From positions 544,001 to 608,000 of the forward strand of contig CBDFJG010000001.1 of assembly GCA_965248445.1 (NCBI GenBank): DNA of 64,000 nt. The letters are read 5' to 3'. Positions 34,396-45,593 of this stretch are shown piece by piece (within the stretch, counting starts at the first letter, position 1; the number at the start of each line of letters is the position of its first letter). The notes below the pieces were generated by a model, which did not search any database, was not told the origin of the DNA, and saw nothing but the letters and a program-made list of their open reading frames with translations. A program made the position numbers and the translations under genes. Source of the stretch: Planctomycetota bacterium. GTDB taxonomy: Bacteria; Planctomycetota; JAJSAM01; JAJVHW01.

Positions 34396-35090
34396 CATGC
34401 ATATCCGGTTAATGACCGCGCCCACTACATCTTGTGCTAGAAGGGCAGCGGGCTTGCAGGCTCGTCGGCGTAGACCTGTTCGTACGTGCGCGGCGGCGTC
34501 TTCGCCGCGATGCCGAGGACCGTCTGGAACGCTGCCTGCGGCGTGCGTCTCCTGTTGAACCGGAACGTGAACTCGTCGAGATACCGCTGCAGGTGCTTCT
34601 CCGAGACCCGGCCGTGGTGCGTGCCTACGAGCCAGGTCTTGAGGTTGGAGAAGACCAGGTGGTGCAGGTGCCTCAGGACGTCCGCCTGCGCCGCGCCCAT
34701 CATCGTGGACTCGATCCCGTGCTCGTAGCCGAGTTTCTCGACTGCGTCGTAGGTCTCGTGGCCGTCGGTCACGACGAGCGCCCCACGCTCGATGCTGTCC
34801 TTGACGAACGCCAGCAGGTGCGGCTTCGATGAGGCCGGCACGTGGCGCAGCCGGATGCGTCCGGGCTGTGTGCCTCTCTTCGTCGGACGCACCTCGACCG
34901 CGCCGACCACGACGGCCTTGTCTGCCGCGGTGCGCTCCTCTCGGCCTCGAAACGGCGCTCCGATCAGCGCCTCGTCGACCTCGACGACGCCGAACAACTG
35001 CGCGCGCTCCGGCGCGACCATCGCAGATCGCAGTTTCTGGAGCATCTGGTACGCGGTCTCGTAGCGGGTCAGACCGAGCTGTCGCTGGAG
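34396..35090 (-). mobile_element. 5'-truncated IS1595-family element (transposase remnant 34437-35090)
   Basis: End CATGCATATCCGGTT; near-identical to about 39320-40008. Confidence 0.9.
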
Positions 35091-36400
35091 CCAGGGTCGA
35101 GCGGAACCTGTTCAGCGGCCAGCGGTCCGACGACCCCGGCGTCGACATCGACGGGCCGAACGCCGTGGTGCAAAAGAACCGGTTCGTCTACGGCCTCGGC
35201 GTCGGCATCCAGGTCGATGCCGAGAACGGTGGAACGGCCACGGTCTGCAAGAATACGGTCGATTCGATGGCGGGCGACTCCTACATCCTGGTGGAGAACG
35301 CGGCGGGCCCCAGGGTCCTGAAGAACGTCTTCAAGAACGCTTACATTGGCGATAGCTACGACCACGTCATCGACCTCCAGTCCTGTGACGACGCCCTAGT
35401 CTCCGGCAACAAGATACTGACGATGAACTACTCCATCGAGAGGGGGATCAACGTCGCGGGCGAACGGGCGACGGTAACGAAGAACTGCATCGAGAACGTG
35501 AATGGCTACTACTACGACCTGTATTGCATCTACGTGCAGGGGAACGACGCCGCGATCAGCCGCAACAAGATCCGGATCTGCGGCGCCGGGGAGGAATCCG
35601 ACACGTATGCGATCTACGTTTCCGGGAACACAGCGAGCGTCACGCGAAACGCGATCAACGACATAGCTGGTGGCGGCGACGAGATCTTCGGGGTCTATAT
35701 CGACGGCGACGACGGCTCCATCGACGGCAACCGGATCAGCCACCTGAACGAAGAGTACACGTACGCCATCTACTACACCGGCCACAGGGCCCGGATCGTC
35801 AAGAACAGGATCGCGCACGTGATGGCTGACGGGGACATCTACGTCCGCGGCGATGACTTCCTGATCGAGAACAACACCGTCAGGGACGGAGCGTACTACT
35901 GCACCGGTATCTACACGCGCGGATCCGCCACGATGCTCGGGGCGGCGGTGATCCAGCGGAACTCACTGAGCTTTCTCGGGTCGGACGGCATCGACCACGG
36001 AGGCAACGGGGTGGTCATCCGCGACAACAAGCTGAACCACCTGGCGGGGTTCGGGGTGATTGCGGACGGAAACGACAACGTGCTGATCGGTAACAGTGTG
36101 TCGGGCACGTACACGGCCGCTTTCCACATCGATGGCAACGACAACAGCGTGACGGGTTGTGCCGCCAGGGACAGCGACGGAGACGGGTTCAGGATCCAGG
36201 GCAACAACAACACGCTGGAGAACTGCACGGCGTCCAACTGCGCCGCCGAGGGCCTCGACAACAGCGGCACCGACACCAGCGCGATGAACTGCCGGTTCAC
36301 CGGCTCCCGAATCGACTACGCCGGCAACAACAACATGATCGACGACACCGGAACGACGTTCGGGACCGGAAGTGCCGCGACCGCGCCCGAGATCAACTGA
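35091..36400 (+). pseudogene. Beta-helix (NosD-like) protein lacking its N-terminus
   Basis: Regular G-I-x-V-x-G / I-x-x-N repeats; begins at the IS1595 breakpoint. Confidence 0.75.
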
Positions 36401-36524
36401 CCTCGGGACCATCGAGATCGGGACACCCGCGCGGACGGGTCCTGCGGATACCGAGATGGGATGAGATCCCGTCTTCTCGACCAAGGTTCTTAGAGCGTTG
36501 TTGGCGCTGCCCGCCTCGCCTGCG

Positions 36525-38056
36525 GTACCCGTTCAGGGTATGACGATCCGCGGCCTCAGCGCGTGATCGGGAGCGCGACGAGAGCCGGCGGCGAGCGGTT
36601 GTGCGCGAGTGCCGCGCTGACGTCTGCGAGGTAATCGAAGACGCTCTCGCCACGCTGGCGGAGCGTGGCGGTGACGGTCAGGATGCGCTCGACGAAGCGG
36701 AGTCCGCGCTCGCTCTGACTTCCGTGCGTTGCGCGTCTCCACAGGACCGGCTTGCGCACCGCGCGCTCAGCGGCGTTGTTCGTCGGGGAGACGCCAGGGA
36801 CGTCGGCGAAGGTCCACAGAGCCTCCGCTCGGTCGAGCAGATGCCGAGTCGTTCCGCGTACTCGGCGGTGCTTGCTGTCTGCGCCGCGCACGAGCAGCGT
36901 CAGGAGTCGGTCCCATGTGAGACGCAGCTCACGCCGCATGCGGTCGCGGTCCCCGTGCTCGCCGAAGTGACGCTGAGCTCGCATGACAGCCTGGGCGAGA
37001 CGCACGGCCTGCTTGCCGAAGCGCCGGCCGCCGCGCGAGCCCTCGGCCAGCGCTCGAAAGTCCCTCTCGAGATGCGCCCAGCAGATCTGGCGGCGCTCGG
37101 TGGGATGCTGGTCGTAAGCGCCCATACGGTCGGTCACGAGGACGCCCCTGAAGCGCTTGCCCACGAGTCGCCGCATGGCCTTGGCGCTCCTGCGCCGATC
37201 GATACGATGGACCGTGGCGTGCTCACAGACCGCGCTCCACAGCCAATGCAGCGTGCCACGACGCGACCACGGTGTCTCGTCTACATAGGCGACGCTGCTC
37301 GTGCGTACGGCCCCGAGGGCCTCGATGTGCGCTGAGGAGATGGCTCCCGACACCCGCTCCTCGATCGCACTGACCGTGCCCGGTGACATCGAGACGCCGA
37401 TGACGTCACGCAACAGACGACTGGTCTCGCGCCGCGACAGGCGGAAGACGCCGACCAGAGCCGCGGTGAGCGCACAGAGTCGCGGGCCGAAGGGACTCGC
37501 CGTCACACCGCTTGGCAGCGAGGCAGTGGACGTGGCGCCACAGTCCGTGCACCGTGCCCGGTGCAACCGGTGCTCGGTCACCTGGATCAGCCGTGGCGGG
37601 ACCTCGAAGACCTGCTGGCGTGTCGGGGCGCGATCGATCGGGACGAGCACGTCGCTCCCACACGCGCTGCACTCGCGCGGGCGGTGGTCCTCTACGCCAT
37701 CGACCTCGGACTCGTCCACGAGCTTGCGCGTCGCCCCTTTGTGGCCGGGCTGCGCACCCTGGCGCTTGTCCGACGGCGGCTTGCGCCGCCGCCGCTTCTT
37801 GGACCACGACGGATCCGAGGACGGTGGGCGCGAGGAGGTGCGGGAGTCCCGGCGAAGACGGCTCTCGAGATCGTCGATCCGTGCCGCCTGCCGCTCGATC
37901 ACCTCCGCCTGCTCGGCAATCGTCTCGTCCCGAGCGTCCAGACGACGGGTCAGGCGCTCGACCAGATCACGCAGCTCATCGGTGCCCACATCCGATTCAT
38001 CGACCGAACGGAAAGCGATCTGGATCCGAGCTCAGAACCAAGGGCTGAACGGGTAC
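36525..38056 (-). mobile_element. IS66-family element copy B1 with 8-bp target duplication CGCCTGCG
   Basis: IRs GTACCCGTTCAG/CTGAACGGGTAC; duplication at 36517-36524 and 38057-38064. Confidence 0.95.
36556..37989 (-). CDS. IS66-family transposase
   Basis: SSRPPSSD, DETPW, QICWAH, TNNAAER. Confidence 0.95.
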   Translation of the reverse strand: MGTDELRDLVERLTRRLDARDETIAEQAEVIERQAARIDDLESRLRRDSRTSSRPPSSDPSWSKKRRRRKPPSDKRQGAQPGHKGATRKLVDESEVDGVEDHRPRECSACGSDVLVPIDRAPTRQQVFEVPPRLIQVTEHRLHRARCTDCGATSTASLPSGVTASPFGPRLCALTAALVGVFRLSRRETSRLLRDVIGVSMSPGTVSAIEERVSGAISSAHIEALGAVRTSSVAYVDETPWSRRGTLHWLWSAVCEHATVHRIDRRRSAKAMRRLVGKRFRGVLVTDRMGAYDQHPTERRQICWAHLERDFRALAEGSRGGRRFGKQAVRLAQAVMRAQRHFGEHGDRDRMRRELRLTWDRLLTLLVRGADSKHRRVRGTTRHLLDRAEALWTFADVPGVSPTNNAAERAVRKPVLWRRATHGSQSERGLRFVERILTVTATLRQRGESVFDYLADVSAALAHNRSPPALVALPITR

Positions 38057-38967
38057 CGCCTGCGCGCGGGGACCGCGCTCGGCGGGCCGCGAGGACAGGT
38101 TGGGTGGTGCGACGCCTTCGCCTGTCGGCTCGGGCATGAATCCGGGGCGGCGGAGCGCGCGCGAGTTCGCTCGGAAGACTCGTGGCTCATGCGGGCACCT
38201 GCGTGGCCGACGTGGCCACGGGTGTGGGCCGGGGGACGAAGGGCTGTTTGTTTCGAGCCACCCAGTGGACGGCGACCAGGAGCTTTCGCATGGACGCGAC
38301 GAGGGCGACCTTCGGGAGCTTGCCCTGGGACCGAAGCCGTTCGTAGAAGGCGCGCAGCCAGGGGTTCCTGCGCACCGCGGTCAGGACGGGCATCCACAGG
38401 GCCCTGCGCAGCCGGGCGTGCCCGATGCGGGTGATGGCGGCGCGTTGGCCCTGGTTGCGTCCGGACTGCTTGAGTGCCGGGACGACCCCGATGTATGACG
38501 CCAGCGCCTTGGCGTCGCGGAAACGAGTGATGTCGCCCAGCTCCGCGACGAGCCGCGCGGCGGTCTGTGGCCCGATGCCGTCGATGGTCGTGAGGAGCTT
38601 GCCGACCTCGTGGTGCTCCAGGGTTCCCCCGATCAGCTTCTCCAAGTCGCGAAGGCGCCGGCGCAGCAAGTCCAGATCCTCGCAGGCGTACCGGACCTGA
38701 GTGCGATAGGCCTCGGCGTGGTGGCGGCCCACGGACGACTTGGCTGCACGGACCAGGTCTTGGGCAAGCTGCCGCCCGACTCGGTGACGTCCGTCGTAAC
38801 GGAGCGCGGCGAGTCGCTTGACCGAGACACCCACAAAGGCCTGCGCGGTGGGATGGCGGTTGAGCAGCGCCGTGGCGAGTTCGCTGTCGAGGGTGCGGAC
38901 GTGGCGTGTGAACTCCGGGAAACCCAGGTCCACCAAGCGGTGAAGCCGGCGGACCCGGTCTCCAAAG

Positions 38968-40008
38968 CATGCATATCCGGTTGACGACCGTGACCCCAAG
39001 GGGTAGTGTCTCGGACGCATGCCGAAGCCGGGCTACCCTCGCAACATCGTGGAGTTCACGGAGCAGTTCGCGACGGAAGAGCAGTGCCTCGAGTACCTCG
39101 TGCAGTGTCGTTGGCCCGACGGGTTCCGCTGCCGCCGGTGCGGCGGCAAGAAGTACTGGCCCCGTCCAGATCGAAGAGCGATGCGGTGCGTGGGCTGCGA
39201 CCTGATCACGTCGGTCACCGCGGGCACAGTGCTGCATCGCAGCCGGCTGCCGCTGAAGTCCTGGATGTGGGCCGCGTACTTGATGACGACGGACAAGCGG
39301 GGCGTCTCTGCGCTCGCACTCCAGCGACAGCTCGGTCTGACCCGCTACGAGACCGCGTACCAGATGCTCCAGAAACTGCGATCTGCGATGGTCGCGCCGG
39401 AGCGCGCGCAGTTGTTCGGCGTCGTCGAGGTCGACGAGGCGCTGATCGGAGCGCCGTTTCGAGGCCGAGAGGAGCGCACCGCGGCAGACAAGGCCGTCGT
39501 GGTCGGCGCGGTCGAGGTGCGTCCGACGAAGAGAGGCACACAGCCCGGACGCATCCGGCTGCGCCACGTGCCGGCCTCATCGAAGCCGCACCTGCTGGCG
39601 TTCGTCAAGGACAGCATCGAGCGTGGGGCGCTCGTCGTGACCGACGGCCACGAGACCTACGACGCAGTCGAGAAACTCGGCTACGAGCACGGGATCGAGT
39701 CCACGATGATGGGCGCGGCGCAGGCGGACGTCCTGAGGCACCTGCACCTGGTCTTCTCCAACCTCAAGACCTGGCTCGTAGGCACGCACCACGGCCGGGT
39801 CTCGAAGAAGCACCTGCAGCGGTATCTCGACGAGTTCACGTTCCGGTTCAACAGGAGACGCACGCCGCAGGCAGCGTTCCAGACGGTCCTCGGCATCGCG
39901 GCGAAGACGCCGCCGCACGTACGAACAGGTCTACGCCGACGAGCCTGCAAGCCCGCTGCCCTTCTAGCACAAGATGTAGTGGGCGCGGTCATTAACCGGA
40001 TATGCATG
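38968..40008 (+). mobile_element. IS1595-family element with 8-bp target duplication CTCCAAAG
   Basis: IRs CATGCATATCCGGTT; duplication at 38960-38967 and 40009-40016. Confidence 0.93.
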
Positions 40009-40038
40009 CTCCAAAGTCCTGGACCACGCGATCCCTGA
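39019..40038 (+). CDS. IS1595-family transposase (C-terminus frameshifted relative to the other copy)
   Basis: RWPDGFRC zinc ribbon, VEVDE, TDG, HLQRYLDEFTFRFN. Confidence 0.9.
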   Translation: MPKPGYPRNIVEFTEQFATEEQCLEYLVQCRWPDGFRCRRCGGKKYWPRPDRRAMRCVGCDLITSVTAGTVLHRSRLPLKSWMWAAYLMTTDKRGVSALALQRQLGLTRYETAYQMLQKLRSAMVAPERAQLFGVVEVDEALIGAPFRGREERTAADKAVVVGAVEVRPTKRGTQPGRIRLRHVPASSKPHLLAFVKDSIERGALVVTDGHETYDAVEKLGYEHGIESTMMGAAQADVLRHLHLVFSNLKTWLVGTHHGRVSKKHLQRYLDEFTFRFNRRRTPQAAFQTVLGIAAKTPPHVRTGLRRRACKPAALLAQDVVGAVINRICMLQSPGPRDP

Positions 40039-40479
40039 GTCTGACGAGCTCGCGCAGTTCCTCGGTGCCGGAGTCGGGCAGCCGCGTGGGCTCCGGGCGT
40101 TTCTGGCGAGCGAACCGGGCGAGCCCGAGGGCGTCGATGGCATCGGTCTTGGTCCGCTGCAGGTCCTCGCCGGCGAAGCGGTGGGTCCGCAGCGGATTGA
40201 TCAGCACCATGGCGAAACCGCGCGAGAGAAGCTCCGCCGCCAAGTTGCGCCAGTAGTGCCCGGTCGCCTCCAAGGCCACGAGCACGTCTCGAGGGACGCC
40301 GAGCAACTCGAAGAGCTCCTCGTAGCCCTGTGCGTCCTCACCGAAGGCGGTGGGCCGCACCAGGATCTCTTCGTCCTCGTCCATCACCGCCACGACGTGC
40401 TTCTTCGAAGCGATGTCTATCCCCGCGTAGCGCATCGTGCACCTCCTGTCATGCGACGAGGAGGACCGGGAGCCTCGGA

Positions 40480-40660
40480 GCCGGCGACCGTACTCATCCT
40501 TGTTCATGCGAGGACGCGCGTCTGCGCGCCTCAGGATCCCGTCCGAGCGTGGGTCGCCGGTCGAGGGCGCCAATCTCATCTCCGAGGACTGCGCCTCGTG
40601 AAGGCCGCGGCGACCCTCTCCCGGCTCTCGTCGATCTCTGTCCACCGTAGGTCGCGGGCA
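40480..40660 (-). ncRNA. Predicted IS110 bridge RNA (boundaries approximate)
   Basis: Four guide segments matching the actual target and donor, each pair flanking a hairpin; see findings. Confidence 0.75.
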
Positions 40661-40760
40661 TGAGTGGACGTCATACAAGAAGGCCGGTCCCTGCCTCGGT
40701 GTAACCCGTAGCGGTTTCCAGAGGCGCTGACGGGCTTGCGAGCCCGAGGAGGAACCGGCT

Positions 40761-41804
40761 ATGGCAAAGGCTACACGTTTCGTGATCGGGATGGACCTGG
40801 GCGACCGCGTGGTGCCTGTGTGTGTGCTGGACCGCAAGACGGGCGAGATCGTGGGCGAAGGGCGCGTCGCGACGACGCGTGCTCGCCTGACGGAGTTCCT
40901 CGGCGAGATCGAGCGCTCGAAGGTGGTGATGGAGAGCGGGACGCACTCGCCGTGGATCAGCCGCCTCGCCGAGGGTCTTGGTCACGACGTCATCGTGGCC
41001 GATGCGCGTCGGCTGCGCGCGGTGTGGGACTCGCCCAAGAAGAGTGACCGCCGCGACGCGCTGGTTCTGGCGCAACTGGGGGCCGGGCACCCAGGGCTCC
41101 TTCATCCGGTGTCTCACCGGAGCGAGCGCGCACAGACCCACATGGTCGTGCTCCGAGCGCGCGAGCGTGTGGTCGACGCGCGTACGAAGTTGGTCAATGC
41201 CGCGCGGGGCTCGGTGAAGTCGCTCGGGTACCGATTGCCCGCTTGCTCCGCTCCGAGCTTCCATCGCAAGGCACGCGAGGCGGTGCCGGAAACCCTCGTG
41301 GACGCCCTGGCCCCGTTGTTCGACGCGATCGCAGCGTTGACGGAGAGCATCGCGCGCTACGACCGCGAAGTCGAGCGTCTCGGCCGCGACGCGTATCCGG
41401 TGACACGACGCCTTCGCGAGGTACCCGGCTGCGGTCCCGTCACCGCGCTCGCCTACGTGCTCGTCGTCCACGACCCAGAGCGCTTCTCGCGCAATCGCGA
41501 CGTGGGCGCGTACGTCGGTCTCGTCCCGCGCCAGGACCAGTCGGGCAAGATCGATCGCCAACTCAGGATCACGAAGTGCGGCGACCGGATGCTCCGCCGG
41601 CTGCTCGTGCAGTGCGCGCACTACGTGCTCGGACCACACGGGCCCGACAGCGACCTGAGACGCTGGGGTCTGGAGCTGGCGCAACGGGGCGGGAAGAACG
41701 CGAAGAAACGGGCGACCGTCGCGGTCGCCCGCAAGCTCGCCGTGCTCTTCCACGCTCTGTGGATGAAGGACCGCGCGTACGAGCCGCTCGCTCGAGCGGC
41801 GTGA
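40761..41804 (+). CDS. IS110-family (IS1111-type) recombinase/transposase, intact
   Basis: GMDLG, MESG, KSDRRDA, VPGCGP, GLVPRQDQSG, AVARKL. Confidence 0.95.
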   Translation: MAKATRFVIGMDLGDRVVPVCVLDRKTGEIVGEGRVATTRARLTEFLGEIERSKVVMESGTHSPWISRLAEGLGHDVIVADARRLRAVWDSPKKSDRRDALVLAQLGAGHPGLLHPVSHRSERAQTHMVVLRARERVVDARTKLVNAARGSVKSLGYRLPACSAPSFHRKAREAVPETLVDALAPLFDAIAALTESIARYDREVERLGRDAYPVTRRLREVPGCGPVTALAYVLVVHDPERFSRNRDVGAYVGLVPRQDQSGKIDRQLRITKCGDRMLRRLLVQCAHYVLGPHGPDSDLRRWGLELAQRGGKNAKKRATVAVARKLAVLFHALWMKDRAYEPLARAA

Positions 41805-41849
41805 TGACCGACTGAACACCACGAACAACACGGGAGTCTGATCGACCGA

Positions 41850-42080
41850 GCAACGCGCCCACCCGGGCGATGCCCATCTCCCAACTCGAAGGCGCGACGA
41901 CTGCGGTGGCTGAACGGGCCCGGCCCCGGCCGAGGCCGCGTAACTGATGGCAGCGTCGCCCTCGAGCGGATGCCTCAACGTGCACCGGGTCCAAACGACC
42001 CCCTGACGAGTGCGGATGGATGCGTGCAGAGGGAGCCGGCATCGGCTGCGGTGGACGGATCGCCAAGTCGATCCGACGCC
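41850..42080 (+). ncRNA. Predicted IS1111 seekRNA/bridge RNA (boundaries approximate)
   Basis: Downstream non-coding end holds segments matching both flanks of the insertion site. Confidence 0.6.
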
Positions 42081-42105
42081 TTGACACAAGAGGCCTTCTC
42101 ATGGA

Positions 42106-43632
42106 CGTTCAGCCATTGTGTCTGAGCCCGTATCCAGATCTCCGAGCGGGTTGACGATGAACACCATGTGGGCAAGGACGACCTCCGCGAGTTGATCGAG
42201 CGGCAGTCGCGGCGTCTCGCTGCCCAGGACGAGAAGATCGCTGAGCAGCAGCGTGTCATCGAGGGGCAGCAGGAGGAGATCGCAGATCTTCGGAACCGCC
42301 TGAAGCGGGATTCGCGCAACTCGTCGCGGCCGCCGTCCTCGGACGCGCCGTGGTCCAAGCGTCGGCGCCGGCGAAAGCCCCCGTCGGACAAGAAGCAGGG
42401 CGGCCAGCTGGGTCACGAGGGCAGGACGCGGCGGCTGGTGGACGAGGACGAGGTCGATGACGTCGAGGACCACCGCCCGAGCGAGTGCTCGAGCTGCGGG
42501 GGCAAGGAGCTCGAGCCGCTGGCGCGTCGTCCGCACCGCCACCAGGTGTGGGAGATCCCGCGGGTGCTGGTCCCGGTGACCGAGCATCGTCTTCACCGTG
42601 CGCGCTGCCGGGAGTGCGGCGAGGTGGTGGCGGCGGCGTTGCCCGAGGGCGTCACCAAGAGCGCCTTGGGCCCGCGGCTGAGCGCGCTTGCGGCATCCTT
42701 GAGCGGCGTCTACCGCGTGAGCCGCCGCGAGGTCTCCCGGCTTCTCTCGGAGGTCTTCGGTGTGACGATGTCGCCCGGCACCGTGAGCGCCATCGAGGGA
42801 CGGCTCGGTGAAGGGCTCTCGCTGCCGCACATCCAGGCGCTTGGCGCGGTGCGCACGAGCTCGGTGGCCAACGTGGACGAGACGCCGTGGAGCGAACGTG
42901 GCGAGCTGCGCTGGCTCTGGACCGCGGTGGCCGAAGGCGTTACCGCGCACCGCATCGACTCCCGCCGCAACGCGGCCGCGATGAAGCGCCTGATCGGCCG
43001 GCGCTATCGCGGGGTGCTGGTGACCGACCGCATGGGCGCCTACGACAAGCACCCGCTCAAGAGGCGCCAGCTCTGCTGGGCCCACTTGGAGCGCGACTTC
43101 CGCGCTCTCGCCGAAGGGCCGCGGGGCGGATGGGTCTTCGGCAAGAAGGGCGTCGAGATCGCGGGGGCCGTGATGCGAGTGCACCGCGGCTTCCGCGGCC
43201 ACGGCGACCGCACCCGGCTCGCGCGCCAGCTCCGCGATCCCAAGCGCCGGCTCCGCCGCCTGCTCGAACGCGGGGCACGCGCCAAGCACTGTCCGGTCAG
43301 GGGCATGTCCAAGCACCTGCTGGCGCGCTTCGATGCGCTCTTCACCTTCGCCGAGGTCCCCGACGTCGACCCTACGAACAACGCCGCCGAACGCGCGGTC
43401 CGCAAGCCGGTGCTCTGGCGCAAGGGCTGCTACGGCAGCCAGTCCGCTCGCGGCGAACGCTTCGTCGAGCGAGTGCTCACGGCCACCGCGACGCTGCGCC
43501 GCCGGGGGGGCAAGTCTTCGACTTCCTCGCCGACTCGCTCGCCGCGCACGTCTCCGGCGCCGACCCACCCGTCCTCGTCAGCCTGCCGATCCCGCGCTGA
43601 GGATCAGGGCCCCCGAAGGGCTGAACGGGTAC
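42106..43632 (+). mobile_element. IS66-family element copy C; left IR cut by the IS1111-type element
   Basis: Starts at CGTTCAG (IR missing its first bases); ends CTGAACGGGTAC. Confidence 0.85.
42168..43600 (+). pseudogene. IS66 transposase with a frameshift in a G7 run near 43505
   Basis: Conserved C-terminus QVFDFLADSLAAH lies in another frame. Confidence 0.85.
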
Positions 43633-44061: not shown

Positions 44062-45593
44062 GTACCCGTTCAGGGTATGACGATCCGCGGCCTCAGCGCG
44101 TGATCGGGAGCGCGACGAGAGCCGGCGGCGAGCGGTTGTGCGCGAGTGCCGCGCTGACGTCTGCGAGGTAATCGAAGACGCTCTCGCCACGCTGGCGGAG
44201 CGTGGCGGTGACGGTCAGGATGCGCTCGACGAAGCGGAGTCCGCGCTCGCTCTGACTTCCGTGCGTTGCGCGTCTCCACAGGACCGGCTTGCGCACCGCG
44301 CGCTCAGCGGCGTTGTTCGTCGGGGAGACGCCAGGGACGTCGGCGAAGGTCCACAGAGCCTCCGCTCGGTCGAGCAGATGCCGAGTCGTTCCGCGTACTC
44401 GGCGGTGCTTGCTGTCTGCGCCGCGCACGAGCAGCGTCAGGAGTCGGTCCCATGTGAGACGCAGCTCACGCCGCATGCGGTCGCGGTCCCCGTGCTCGCC
44501 GAAGTGACGCTGAGCTCGCATGACAGCCTGGGCGAGACGCACGGCCTGCTTGCCGAAGCGCCGGCCGCCGCGCGAGCCCTCGGCCAGCGCTCGAAAGTCC
44601 CTCTCGAGATGCGCCCAGCAGATCTGGCGGCGCTCGGTGGGATGCTGGTCGTAAGCGCCCATACGGTCGGTCACGAGGACGCCCCTGAAGCGCTTGCCCA
44701 CGAGTCGCCGCATGGCCTTGGCGCTCCTGCGCCGATCGATACGATGGACCGTGGCGTGCTCACAGACCGCGCTCCACAGCCAATGCAGCGTGCCACGACG
44801 CGACCACGGTGTCTCGTCTACATAGGCGACGCTGCTCGTGCGTACGGCCCCGAGGGCCTCGATGTGCGCTGAGGAGATGGCTCCCGACACCCGCTCCTCG
44901 ATCGCACTGACCGTGCCCGGTGACATCGAGACGCCGATGACGTCACGCAACAGACGACTGGTCTCGCGCCGCGACAGGCGGAAGACGCCGACCAGAGCCG
45001 CGGTGAGCGCACAGAGTCGCGGGCCGAAGGGACTCGCCGTCACACCGCTTGGCAGCGAGGCAGTGGACGTGGCGCCACAGTCCGTGCACCGTGCCCGGTG
45101 CAACCGGTGCTCGGTCACCTGGATCAGCCGTGGCGGGACCTCGAAGACCTGCTGGCGTGTCGGGGCGCGATCGATCGGGACGAGCACGTCGCTCCCACAC
45201 GCGCTGCACTCGCGCGGGCGGTGGTCCTCTACGCCATCGACCTCGGACTCGTCCACGAGCTTGCGCGTCGCCCCTTTGTGGCCGGGCTGCGCACCCTGGC
45301 GCTTGTCCGACGGCGGCTTGCGCCGCCGCCGCTTCTTGGACCACGACGGATCCGAGGACGGTGGGCGCGAGGAGGTGCGGGAGTCCCGGCGAAGACGGCT
45401 CTCGAGATCGTCGATCCGTGCCGCCTGCCGCTCGATCACCTCCGCCTGCTCGGCAATCGTCTCGTCCCGAGCGTCCAGACGACGGGTCAGGCGCTCGACC
45501 AGATCACGCAGCTCATCGGTGCCCACATCCGATTCATCGACCGAACGGAAAGCGATCTGGATCCGAGCTCAGAACCAAGGGCTGAACGGGTAC
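44062..45593 (-). mobile_element. IS66-family element copy B2 (apparently identical to B1); no target duplication
   Basis: Same IRs and identical translated ORFs as 36525-38056. Confidence 0.95.
44093..45526 (-). CDS. IS66-family transposase
   Basis: Identical protein to 36556-37989. Confidence 0.95.
   Translation of the reverse strand: MGTDELRDLVERLTRRLDARDETIAEQAEVIERQAARIDDLESRLRRDSRTSSRPPSSDPSWSKKRRRRKPPSDKRQGAQPGHKGATRKLVDESEVDGVEDHRPRECSACGSDVLVPIDRAPTRQQVFEVPPRLIQVTEHRLHRARCTDCGATSTASLPSGVTASPFGPRLCALTAALVGVFRLSRRETSRLLRDVIGVSMSPGTVSAIEERVSGAISSAHIEALGAVRTSSVAYVDETPWSRRGTLHWLWSAVCEHATVHRIDRRRSAKAMRRLVGKRFRGVLVTDRMGAYDQHPTERRQICWAHLERDFRALAEGSRGGRRFGKQAVRLAQAVMRAQRHFGEHGDRDRMRRELRLTWDRLLTLLVRGADSKHRRVRGTTRHLLDRAEALWTFADVPGVSPTNNAAERAVRKPVLWRRATHGSQSERGLRFVERILTVTATLRQRGESVFDYLADVSAALAHNRSPPALVALPITR

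Follow-up and report, generated by a model that had tools for sequence, protein, structure and literature searches.

The question raised by this locus is whether one RNA-guided insertion sequence (IS) has been programmed to enter the end of another, and what such an entry would mean for the element that receives it. The window (the whole 64,000-nt stretch of Planctomycetota DNA that was analysed) carries on its minus strand an IS110-group element, here called element A, whose two boundaries abut the two halves of the left end of an IS1111-type element, here called element B.

Element A extends over 36464..40679 (minus strand), has a CT core at each end, and measures 1628 bp once two nested elements are subtracted. 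One of these, an IS1595-family element (38968..40008, plus strand), breaks the recombinase gene of the window copy (38187..40435, minus strand, start at 40435), and the other, an IS66-family element (36525..38056, minus strand), lies within the right end; each has an 8-bp target duplication. The genome holds four copies of A, which are 0–1 nt apart over 1629 nt, and the enzyme is 399 aa long in both intact copies, where D7, E56, D98, D101 and S308 are all present. It matches PF01548, the DEDD RuvC domain (E 4e-35), and PF02371, with its catalytic Ser (E 1e-29), and scores 255 bits with NF033542 against a cut-off of 140. Upstream of the gene is a non-coding leader of 245 nt, and the right non-coding end is about 190 nt long.

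The ends of A have the CT core alone in common, with a short ATA/TAT-type flank and no long sub-terminal repeat. This core is found at both ends of all four copies, and uninterrupted sites hold a single CT, indicating no larger duplication. The left junction (40678..40686, minus strand) comprises a 7-nt left target (40686-40680) and the core (40679-40678), while the right junction (36458..36472, minus strand) comprises a 7-nt left donor (36472-36466), the core (36465-36464), and the right target (36463-36458). A candidate joint promoter, TTGGTC-17-TATGAC, is readable across the joined ends of A; no circle joint of A occurs among the contig joints listed, and no promoter or terminator consensus was found in 40300-42200. 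As to the surrounding genome, a one-gene IS66-family element (in the window at 36525-38056 and 44090-45560) is present in more than 30 identical copies, together with several diverged families, and the genome is in a state of IS expansion.

The first-pass annotation had proposed that the leader of A encodes an IS621-type bridge RNA with a CT core and with its guides in the order left target, right target, left donor and right donor. This proposal is borne out by comparison with relatives, namely the best 80 of 361 confirmed loci from genome contigs, with 55–75% identity over the N-terminal domain. The alignment holds 39 sequences: 38 of 45 non-redundant leaders plus that of the window, with seven left out, six being near-copies within a single subgroup and the seventh having a long insertion. 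Its consensus fold predicts a conserved core at 40466..40624 (minus strand), with one outer stem and a pair of hairpins that both contain a large internal loop, the target-binding loop preceding the donor-binding loop. Across the 39 sequences, 92% of cells are paired, as against 39–53% in slid controls and with none of 500 shuffles as high, and 28 of 41 pairs are changed on both sides, a count of compensatory changes that is inflated by kinship among the aligned leaders.

One part of the proposed structure fell away. The words GGGTCGCC and GGCGACCC had been paired as the stem that closes the target loop; this pairing is formed in just 73–76% of cells, with one of its pairs broken in 37 of the 39 sequences, and is a coincidence of a single sequence. 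The target loop instead closes with a partner at 40571-40564 (99.4% paired in the 39 sequences), and GGCGACCC (40558-40551) belongs to the donor-loop stem, as its 5′ strand. Folded by itself, the leader of A has a z-score of −1.9, and its lowest-energy fold, which lies about 4 kcal/mol below the family fold and differs from it in the target loop, leaves the target guides buried, and the analysis relied on the family fold instead. A scan of the leader against Rfam returned no relevant family. One subgroup of relatives (L012, L013, L023, L029-L033, L035, L036, L038, L041, L044 and L062) has a longer leader and, in the roughly 700 nt that follow the stop codon, no right end matching the donor guide; their right ends may be long.

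All four guide matches claimed for the window copy are present, and the guide words occupy the loop positions set by the family alignment. The stretch 40607-40600 is identical to 40686-40679, 40580-40574 is identical to plus-strand 36460-36466, 40543-40535 is identical to 36473-36465, and ACAAG at 40503-40499 complements the left-end CTTGT. When the genome is cut into 44,110 tiles of 245 nt, only two have the four words in this order, and these are presumably A's own copies. On the minus strand, the left target guide (40599..40607) matches 7/7 bases of the left target and then reads CA, not CT, over the core, leaving the second core base mismatched. The pairing of the right target guide stands, and its extent needed correction: with the core it comprises the 8 nt at 40582-40575, and the last base assigned to it in the first pass, 40574, belongs to the handshake AT at 40574-40573, so that the whole feature spans 40573..40582 (minus strand). 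Beyond the core, this guide matches 6/6 bases in the other three copies and 5/6 in the window copy. The left donor guide (40534..40542, minus strand) has a G where relatives have T, A or C, and the same change is found in the right end of A. Finally, the right donor guide is discontinuous (40508-40499, minus strand), with CAT, two unpaired bases and ACAAG, followed by a handshake GA at 40498-40497.

That the guides covary with the flanks, as the first-pass reading would require, holds across the family. The comparison began with 80 rows (79 loci plus A, L057 having no start), the relatives being the best 80 of 361; 49 rows lacked a junction or a loop, and 27 distinct guide pairs were kept, including A. 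Among the 26 pairs other than A, right-guide positions +3 to +5 are 92% identical to the right flank (32% when shuffled), and left-guide positions are 48% identical to the left flank (again 32% when shuffled), the latter figure being lowered because a simple left-register rule misplaces a few rows. None of 5000 shuffles reached the observed right or left figure. Four variants of donor guide and right end occur, A's being unique, and in 26 of 27 pairs the guide follows the end. In the donor loop, target position 7 is complementary to the first handshake base in 88% of 33 cases as against 58%, and the second handshake base shows no signal; in A, this handshake pairs target position 7 by G-T only. 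A left match of 7/7, as seen in A, is reached by just one of the 26 other pairs. The core CT together with the CA that follows it is fixed in the family (26 of 27 pairs), and about 10 bases of A's match are therefore specific to it.

These features invite comparison with IS621 and ISCro4 (PDB 8wt6, 9t56), which have the same DEDD + Ser recombinase as A (E 4e-37 and 3e-40) and likewise carry a bridge RNA upstream of the gene, with a target loop, then a donor loop, and a CT core. Their bridge RNA is described in the available portions of PMC11208160, PMC11208158 and PMC13626964, and the last two of these, in the same portions, also report for IS621 an 8-nt left donor pairing that ends at the first core base, a right donor guide with two unpaired bases, and an AU handshake in the target loop, all as in A. 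There are also differences: the A enzyme has 399 aa and a longer middle region as compared with about 330 aa, its right target guide reaches 5–6 bases past the core instead of 2, and its target is an IS1111 left end and not a REP repeat. Judged from its sequence features (the domains, the upstream leader, the CT core, the two-loop guide order and the covariation), element A would be placed in the IS110 group with the IS621-like bridge recombinases.

The element that A interrupts has its own gene on the plus strand at 40761..41804, an open frame of 347 aa. By the definition given in the available text of PMC11187229, IS1111 elements have sub-terminal inverted repeats of 11–13 bp, set in from the left and right ends by 7 and 3 nt respectively, and encode enzymes of 330–350 aa. 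The 347 aa of B fall within this range, and NF033542 covers both IS110 and IS1111 groups. All seven complete B relatives have 11-bp repeats with 7-nt left and 3-nt right extensions, and the B of the window shows the same layout once A is removed on paper. Its right end (41805..42105, plus strand) is non-coding, includes a −35-like TTGACA at 42081 and the right sub-terminal repeat at 42092-42102, and closes with the 3-nt extension.

The suggestion that the interrupted element is itself of an RNA-guided type agrees with this right non-coding region of about 290 nt, from which B's own guides can be read at approximately 41906-41916, 41938-41946, 41972-41980 and 42015-42021. The right target guide of B matches its right flank at 9/9 positions in the window, the donor guide tracks the right end in all four relatives (of seven) whose guides could be parsed, and the left guide reads the first bases of IS66-type terminal repeats. 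Downstream lies an IS66-like element (42106..43630, plus strand) whose left terminal repeat is the landing site of B. By guides and flank, the target of B is thus read as the terminal repeat of IS66-type elements, and since the flank of B is an IS66-like left end, the locus is a nest of an IS66 end, then an IS1111 element, then an IS110 element. Nothing convincing was found for the original left flank of the IS66-like host. Elsewhere in the genome, lone B right ends at C2:855576 and C3:295664 adjoin a repeat of the same IS66 type. Two B-type left ends, at C3:478460 and C4:1974290 (L247 and L249), sit inside a REP-like repeat with the GGCGTTGGTG word, which has 42 genomic copies, and because of these two placements a second B variant probably targets that repeat. 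A metagenome scan with the B protein gave no matches.

The outer half of the left end of B (36454..36465, plus strand) contains the 7-nt terminal extension and bases 1–5 of the sub-terminal repeat, and the inner half (40678..40760, plus strand) contains the remaining repeat and the leader. Within the left sub-terminal repeat, all four copies of A sit at a single base, on all four B genes of the genome, and none is found in an unrelated target, which is the pattern that the first-pass annotation would have predicted. The two strands together offer 24,328 CTCA sites against which this choice is made. Of the free sites, none fits the 14-base target exactly and only two fit it with one mismatch: a coding, non-IS site, and a fifth B-type left end without a gene, which has the same one-mismatch target as the window copy and yet is empty. 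None of three B right repeats is occupied by A; the bases outside the shared 11 mismatch the guides at three positions, and the right repeat is spared for this reason.

Uninterrupted copies likewise upheld the reading of the target as an IS1111-type element's left sub-terminal inverted repeat. Of 400 other genomes of the phylum, 18 carry a 19-nt left-end pattern intact, at 66 sites in all, whereas a reversed-pattern control is found in none. Thirty uninterrupted loci were examined, 18 of which have at least 300 nt downstream, and 14 of these 18 have an IS1111-type, B-like gene. These relatives read GATG(G/A)GATGAGAAGGCC, the sequence expected of an intact target. The right junction of A was found in none of 400 other genomes. 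Among read-run contigs, the left junction is spanned by those of runs X1, X5 and X7, and the X6 contig ends 6 nt short of it. The X5 (6 differences in 347 nt, 98%) and X7 (22 in 536 nt, 96%) contigs, at a depth of 3–7, come from two studies besides the source and cross the left junction by more than 50 nt on the B side. No read-run contig searched spans the right junction of A by 31 letters, and a search of viral contigs for that junction gave two matches, both due to chance.

Given these observations of sequence matches, conserved structure, covariation and site occupancy, it is probable that the target loop of A is programmed to the 14–15 bases that are most conserved in the left end shared by a widespread IS1111-type clade. 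The end of B is a harmless, multi-copy and horizontally travelling landing pad, and this is the likely reason for the guide programme. Much like IS621, A would join its ends at the CT core into a circle, and the circle joint could provide a promoter for the bridge RNA and recombinase. The donor loop would then read the joined ends of A and the target loop the bottom strand of B's left end, and recombination at CT would place A in the left sub-terminal repeat, facing away from the B gene and leaving no duplication beyond the core. Expression of the RNA, the circle, the promoter, the chemistry and the effect on B are all predicted by this analogy.

How B would fare can be considered from what is left of its end. 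After insertion, the outer end keeps the extension and 7/11 repeat bases, including those read by B's own donor guide, and the inner end keeps 9/11 without the extension; the B gene is displaced 1.6 kb from the putative B joint promoter. Because the left end is split into incomplete halves and the gene is so far removed from the joint promoter, B would seem rather more apt to be impaired than to be left functional, reversibly so if A excises precisely. Excision is disfavoured in IS621, according to the available portion of PMC13626964. Three of the four hosts are also damaged elsewhere: one has IS66 before the gene and an altered right end, one has lost its right end to IS1595, and one has a truncated gene. 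This damage, with no two hosts identical, fits inactivity of B and fits equally a genome full of IS debris.

The four hosts are mosaics. The closest two differ at 16 of 1343 nt and the others by 17–22%, while the copies of A that they carry differ at 0–1 of 1629 nt. Two host types can be told apart, B1 (in the window and on C3) and B2 (two copies on C4), which are about 20% apart in the gene, and one B2 gene carries a B1-type first 100 nt. Over at least 74 nt the inner flank is the same in three of the four A copies; that of the fourth departs from it about 40 nt past the junction, with 12 differences in 100 nt, and the outer ends are of two types. In the window, 35090-36466 is a 1380-bp copy (99.6%) of C4:1674415-1675794, a locus that ends in a free B-type left end lacking a gene; the same stretch is the 3′ part of a gene for a 586-aa exported, beta-helix-like protein, lying between an IS1595 fragment and A. 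The outer terminal extension of the window is of AG type, whereas the donor guide of B1 itself specifies the TG type. From the mosaic hosts, the copied flank and this AG/TG conflict, it follows that flanks have been exchanged across A, by homologous recombination, one-ended transfer or misassembly. One-ended transfer is reported for CazIS110-1 (10.1101/2025.10.25.684509) and discussed in 10.64898/2026.08.14.744561, as far as the available parts of these two sources go. Since recombination across A copies, or misassembly, could multiply junctions, only two insertions are surely independent, and four are possible.

Such exchange bears on several other accounts of the locus. One old insertion of A, spread from host to host through A and its flanks by homologous recombination or gene conversion, might account for all four hosts, so that repeated guided insertion would be unnecessary. 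The mosaic hosts, their swapped outer flanks, and the inner flank that is identical over at least 74 nt in three of four copies would be in keeping with this. Stretches of 30–40 nt are short for homologous recombination, and the inner stretch shared with the fourth copy, whose flank begins to diverge about 40 nt in, is of that length; there are two outer-end types besides, and variants of 2–4% occur at the same junction in two other studies, though these are compatible with old inheritance too. A single old insertion is accordingly held to be quite improbable. That the locus is an artefact of joining repeated elements during assembly is barely credible: the 4.2 kb between the junctions consists wholly of multi-copy elements, and the outer flank is duplicated elsewhere, but a base-precise CT junction that is predicted by the guides recurs in four copies and is spanned by X1, X5 and X7 contigs. 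Misassembly could account for the swapped flanks, not for the junctions.

It is also conceivable that B has stayed mobile and that its recombinase carries B and A together as a composite, in which case A would have gained a carrier and not a dead rival. A cuts beyond the bases read by B's donor guide and leaves the outer end with its 7-nt extension and 7/11 repeat bases, at two loci the terminal extension is the same and the repeat flank is of one kind, and ISPpu9 offers a precedent for modular IS110 movement with a passenger (PMC12288879, in its available portion). Hitch-hiking of this kind is nonetheless unlikely, as no identical composites are seen (the copies of A being 0–1 nt apart and the closest hosts 16 in 1343), three of four hosts are damaged elsewhere, and the B gene would sit 1.6 kb from the joint promoter. 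Finally, the guide of A may have evolved for some other sequence, CT-CA merely happening to complement the start of the IS1111 repeat. This would suit the fixation of CT-CA in the family, the loose left-flank matches of most relatives, and the relative L022, whose host is an unrelated IS1111-type element, entered at the right repeat, with matches of just 3/7 and 5/6. The matches of A itself, at 7/7 and 5–6/6, argue against an incidental target, as do the lack of any other repeated genomic sequence that fits the guide and the empty one-mismatch coding site, and this explanation is considered very improbable indeed.

The preferred reading, that A is programmed to the left end of B, can also be viewed against its relatives. 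The guide programme of A is absent from relatives among 51 distinct guide pairs. L022 (1820-4730) has its insertion in a right sub-terminal repeat and is present in a single copy; its genome has two PF02371 genes in all, that of the relative and that of its host. Of 45 loci with enough left flank, it is the only one to have landed in an IS1111-type repeat. Proteins like that of A were found in none of 16 other genomes of the class and in 4 of 400 genomes of the phylum (59–68% identity), three of the latter having parsed guides and none of these carrying A's programme. Similar proteins occur in three plasmid records (56–58% identity), and ten proteins are 80–94% identical to A. A metagenome pattern scan for the left guide of A in its scaffold yielded no real bridge RNA (0/120) among the matches listed. 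The Durrant supplementary alignment includes a relative with the scaffold of A, and the target 11-mer was not found in seven Durrant supplementary files.

Other relatives have targets of different kinds. Four copies in one Myxococcota genome (L016, L017, L020 and L021) share a target with tRNA-like TTCGAA on both sides, and their left guide reads CA over the core, as in A. That the relatives L016-L021 lie in tRNA genes was considered and not confirmed: ARAGORN finds no tRNA at the interrupted sites. Seven loci from betaproteobacteria-like bins (L002, L003, L028, L039, L040, L047 and L069) have a common left flank that is GC-rich, palindromic and REP-like.

Several known systems resemble parts of this nest. 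IS4321 and IS5075, the subject of work by Partridge and Hall in 2003, reportedly land at a fixed base in the inverted repeats of Tn21-family elements. Like A, they enter the inverted repeats of a different mobile element always at one base, and they are a close parallel of B, an IS1111-type element aimed at IS66 terminal repeats. The roles differ, however, as IS4321 and IS5075 are IS1111-group attackers, and here an IS1111-type element is attacked by an IS110-group one. ISEc21 is, like A, a member of the IS110 group with an upstream guide RNA and a natural target inside another IS, but it hits IS3-family transposase genes at the codons that surround their second catalytic Asp, and A hits an end repeat (for ISEc21, the available text of PMC11187229). 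The prey of A belongs to its own RNA-guided family, unlike the IS3-family prey of ISEc21. ISEc11, ISKpn4 and ISPa11, IS1111 elements with a seekRNA, share with B the 11-bp repeats, the 7- and 3-nt extensions and the long non-coding stretch with guides downstream of the gene, and the 347-aa enzyme of B also fits their layout, as set out in that same available text; B differs in that its left end is interrupted by A in the source genome.

An IS110-group element aimed at an IS1111 end was not found in the literature searched, including the available portions of PMC11208160, PMC12288879 and 10.1101/2025.05.14.653916, and listing in ISfinder or in bioRxiv supplements is possible. What is new is the use of a fellow RNA-guided element as the target; the mechanism and the targeting of mobile elements have both been published, and the locus is therefore not a new kind of system. 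It is tempting to suggest RNA-guided hyperparasitism within one family, whereby A occupies every gene-bearing B and reversibly shuts the clade down, giving a three-tier chain, with CT-CA making IS1111 ends recurrent prey and L022 a second, independent case; this broader proposal is a tentative one, somewhat short of an even chance.

The position of the insertion is of interest in its own right. The cut in the IS1111 left end is exact: the guide-read terminal bases fall on one side of A and most of the sub-terminal repeat on the other, and by virtue of this position the locus is a natural experiment on end recognition. Which enzyme domain binds IS1111 ends is stated as not known in the available text of PMC11187229. 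Should hyperparasitism prove true, the site would be a natural probe of the purpose of the sub-terminal repeat. With its 399-aa recombinase, two intact copies, long right target guide and tight natural match of 7+CT+6, A is moreover a reasonable candidate for an orthologue screen. For the family as a whole, the locus means that RNA-guided insertion sequences can be aimed at one another, as set down here in a readable, three-level nest.
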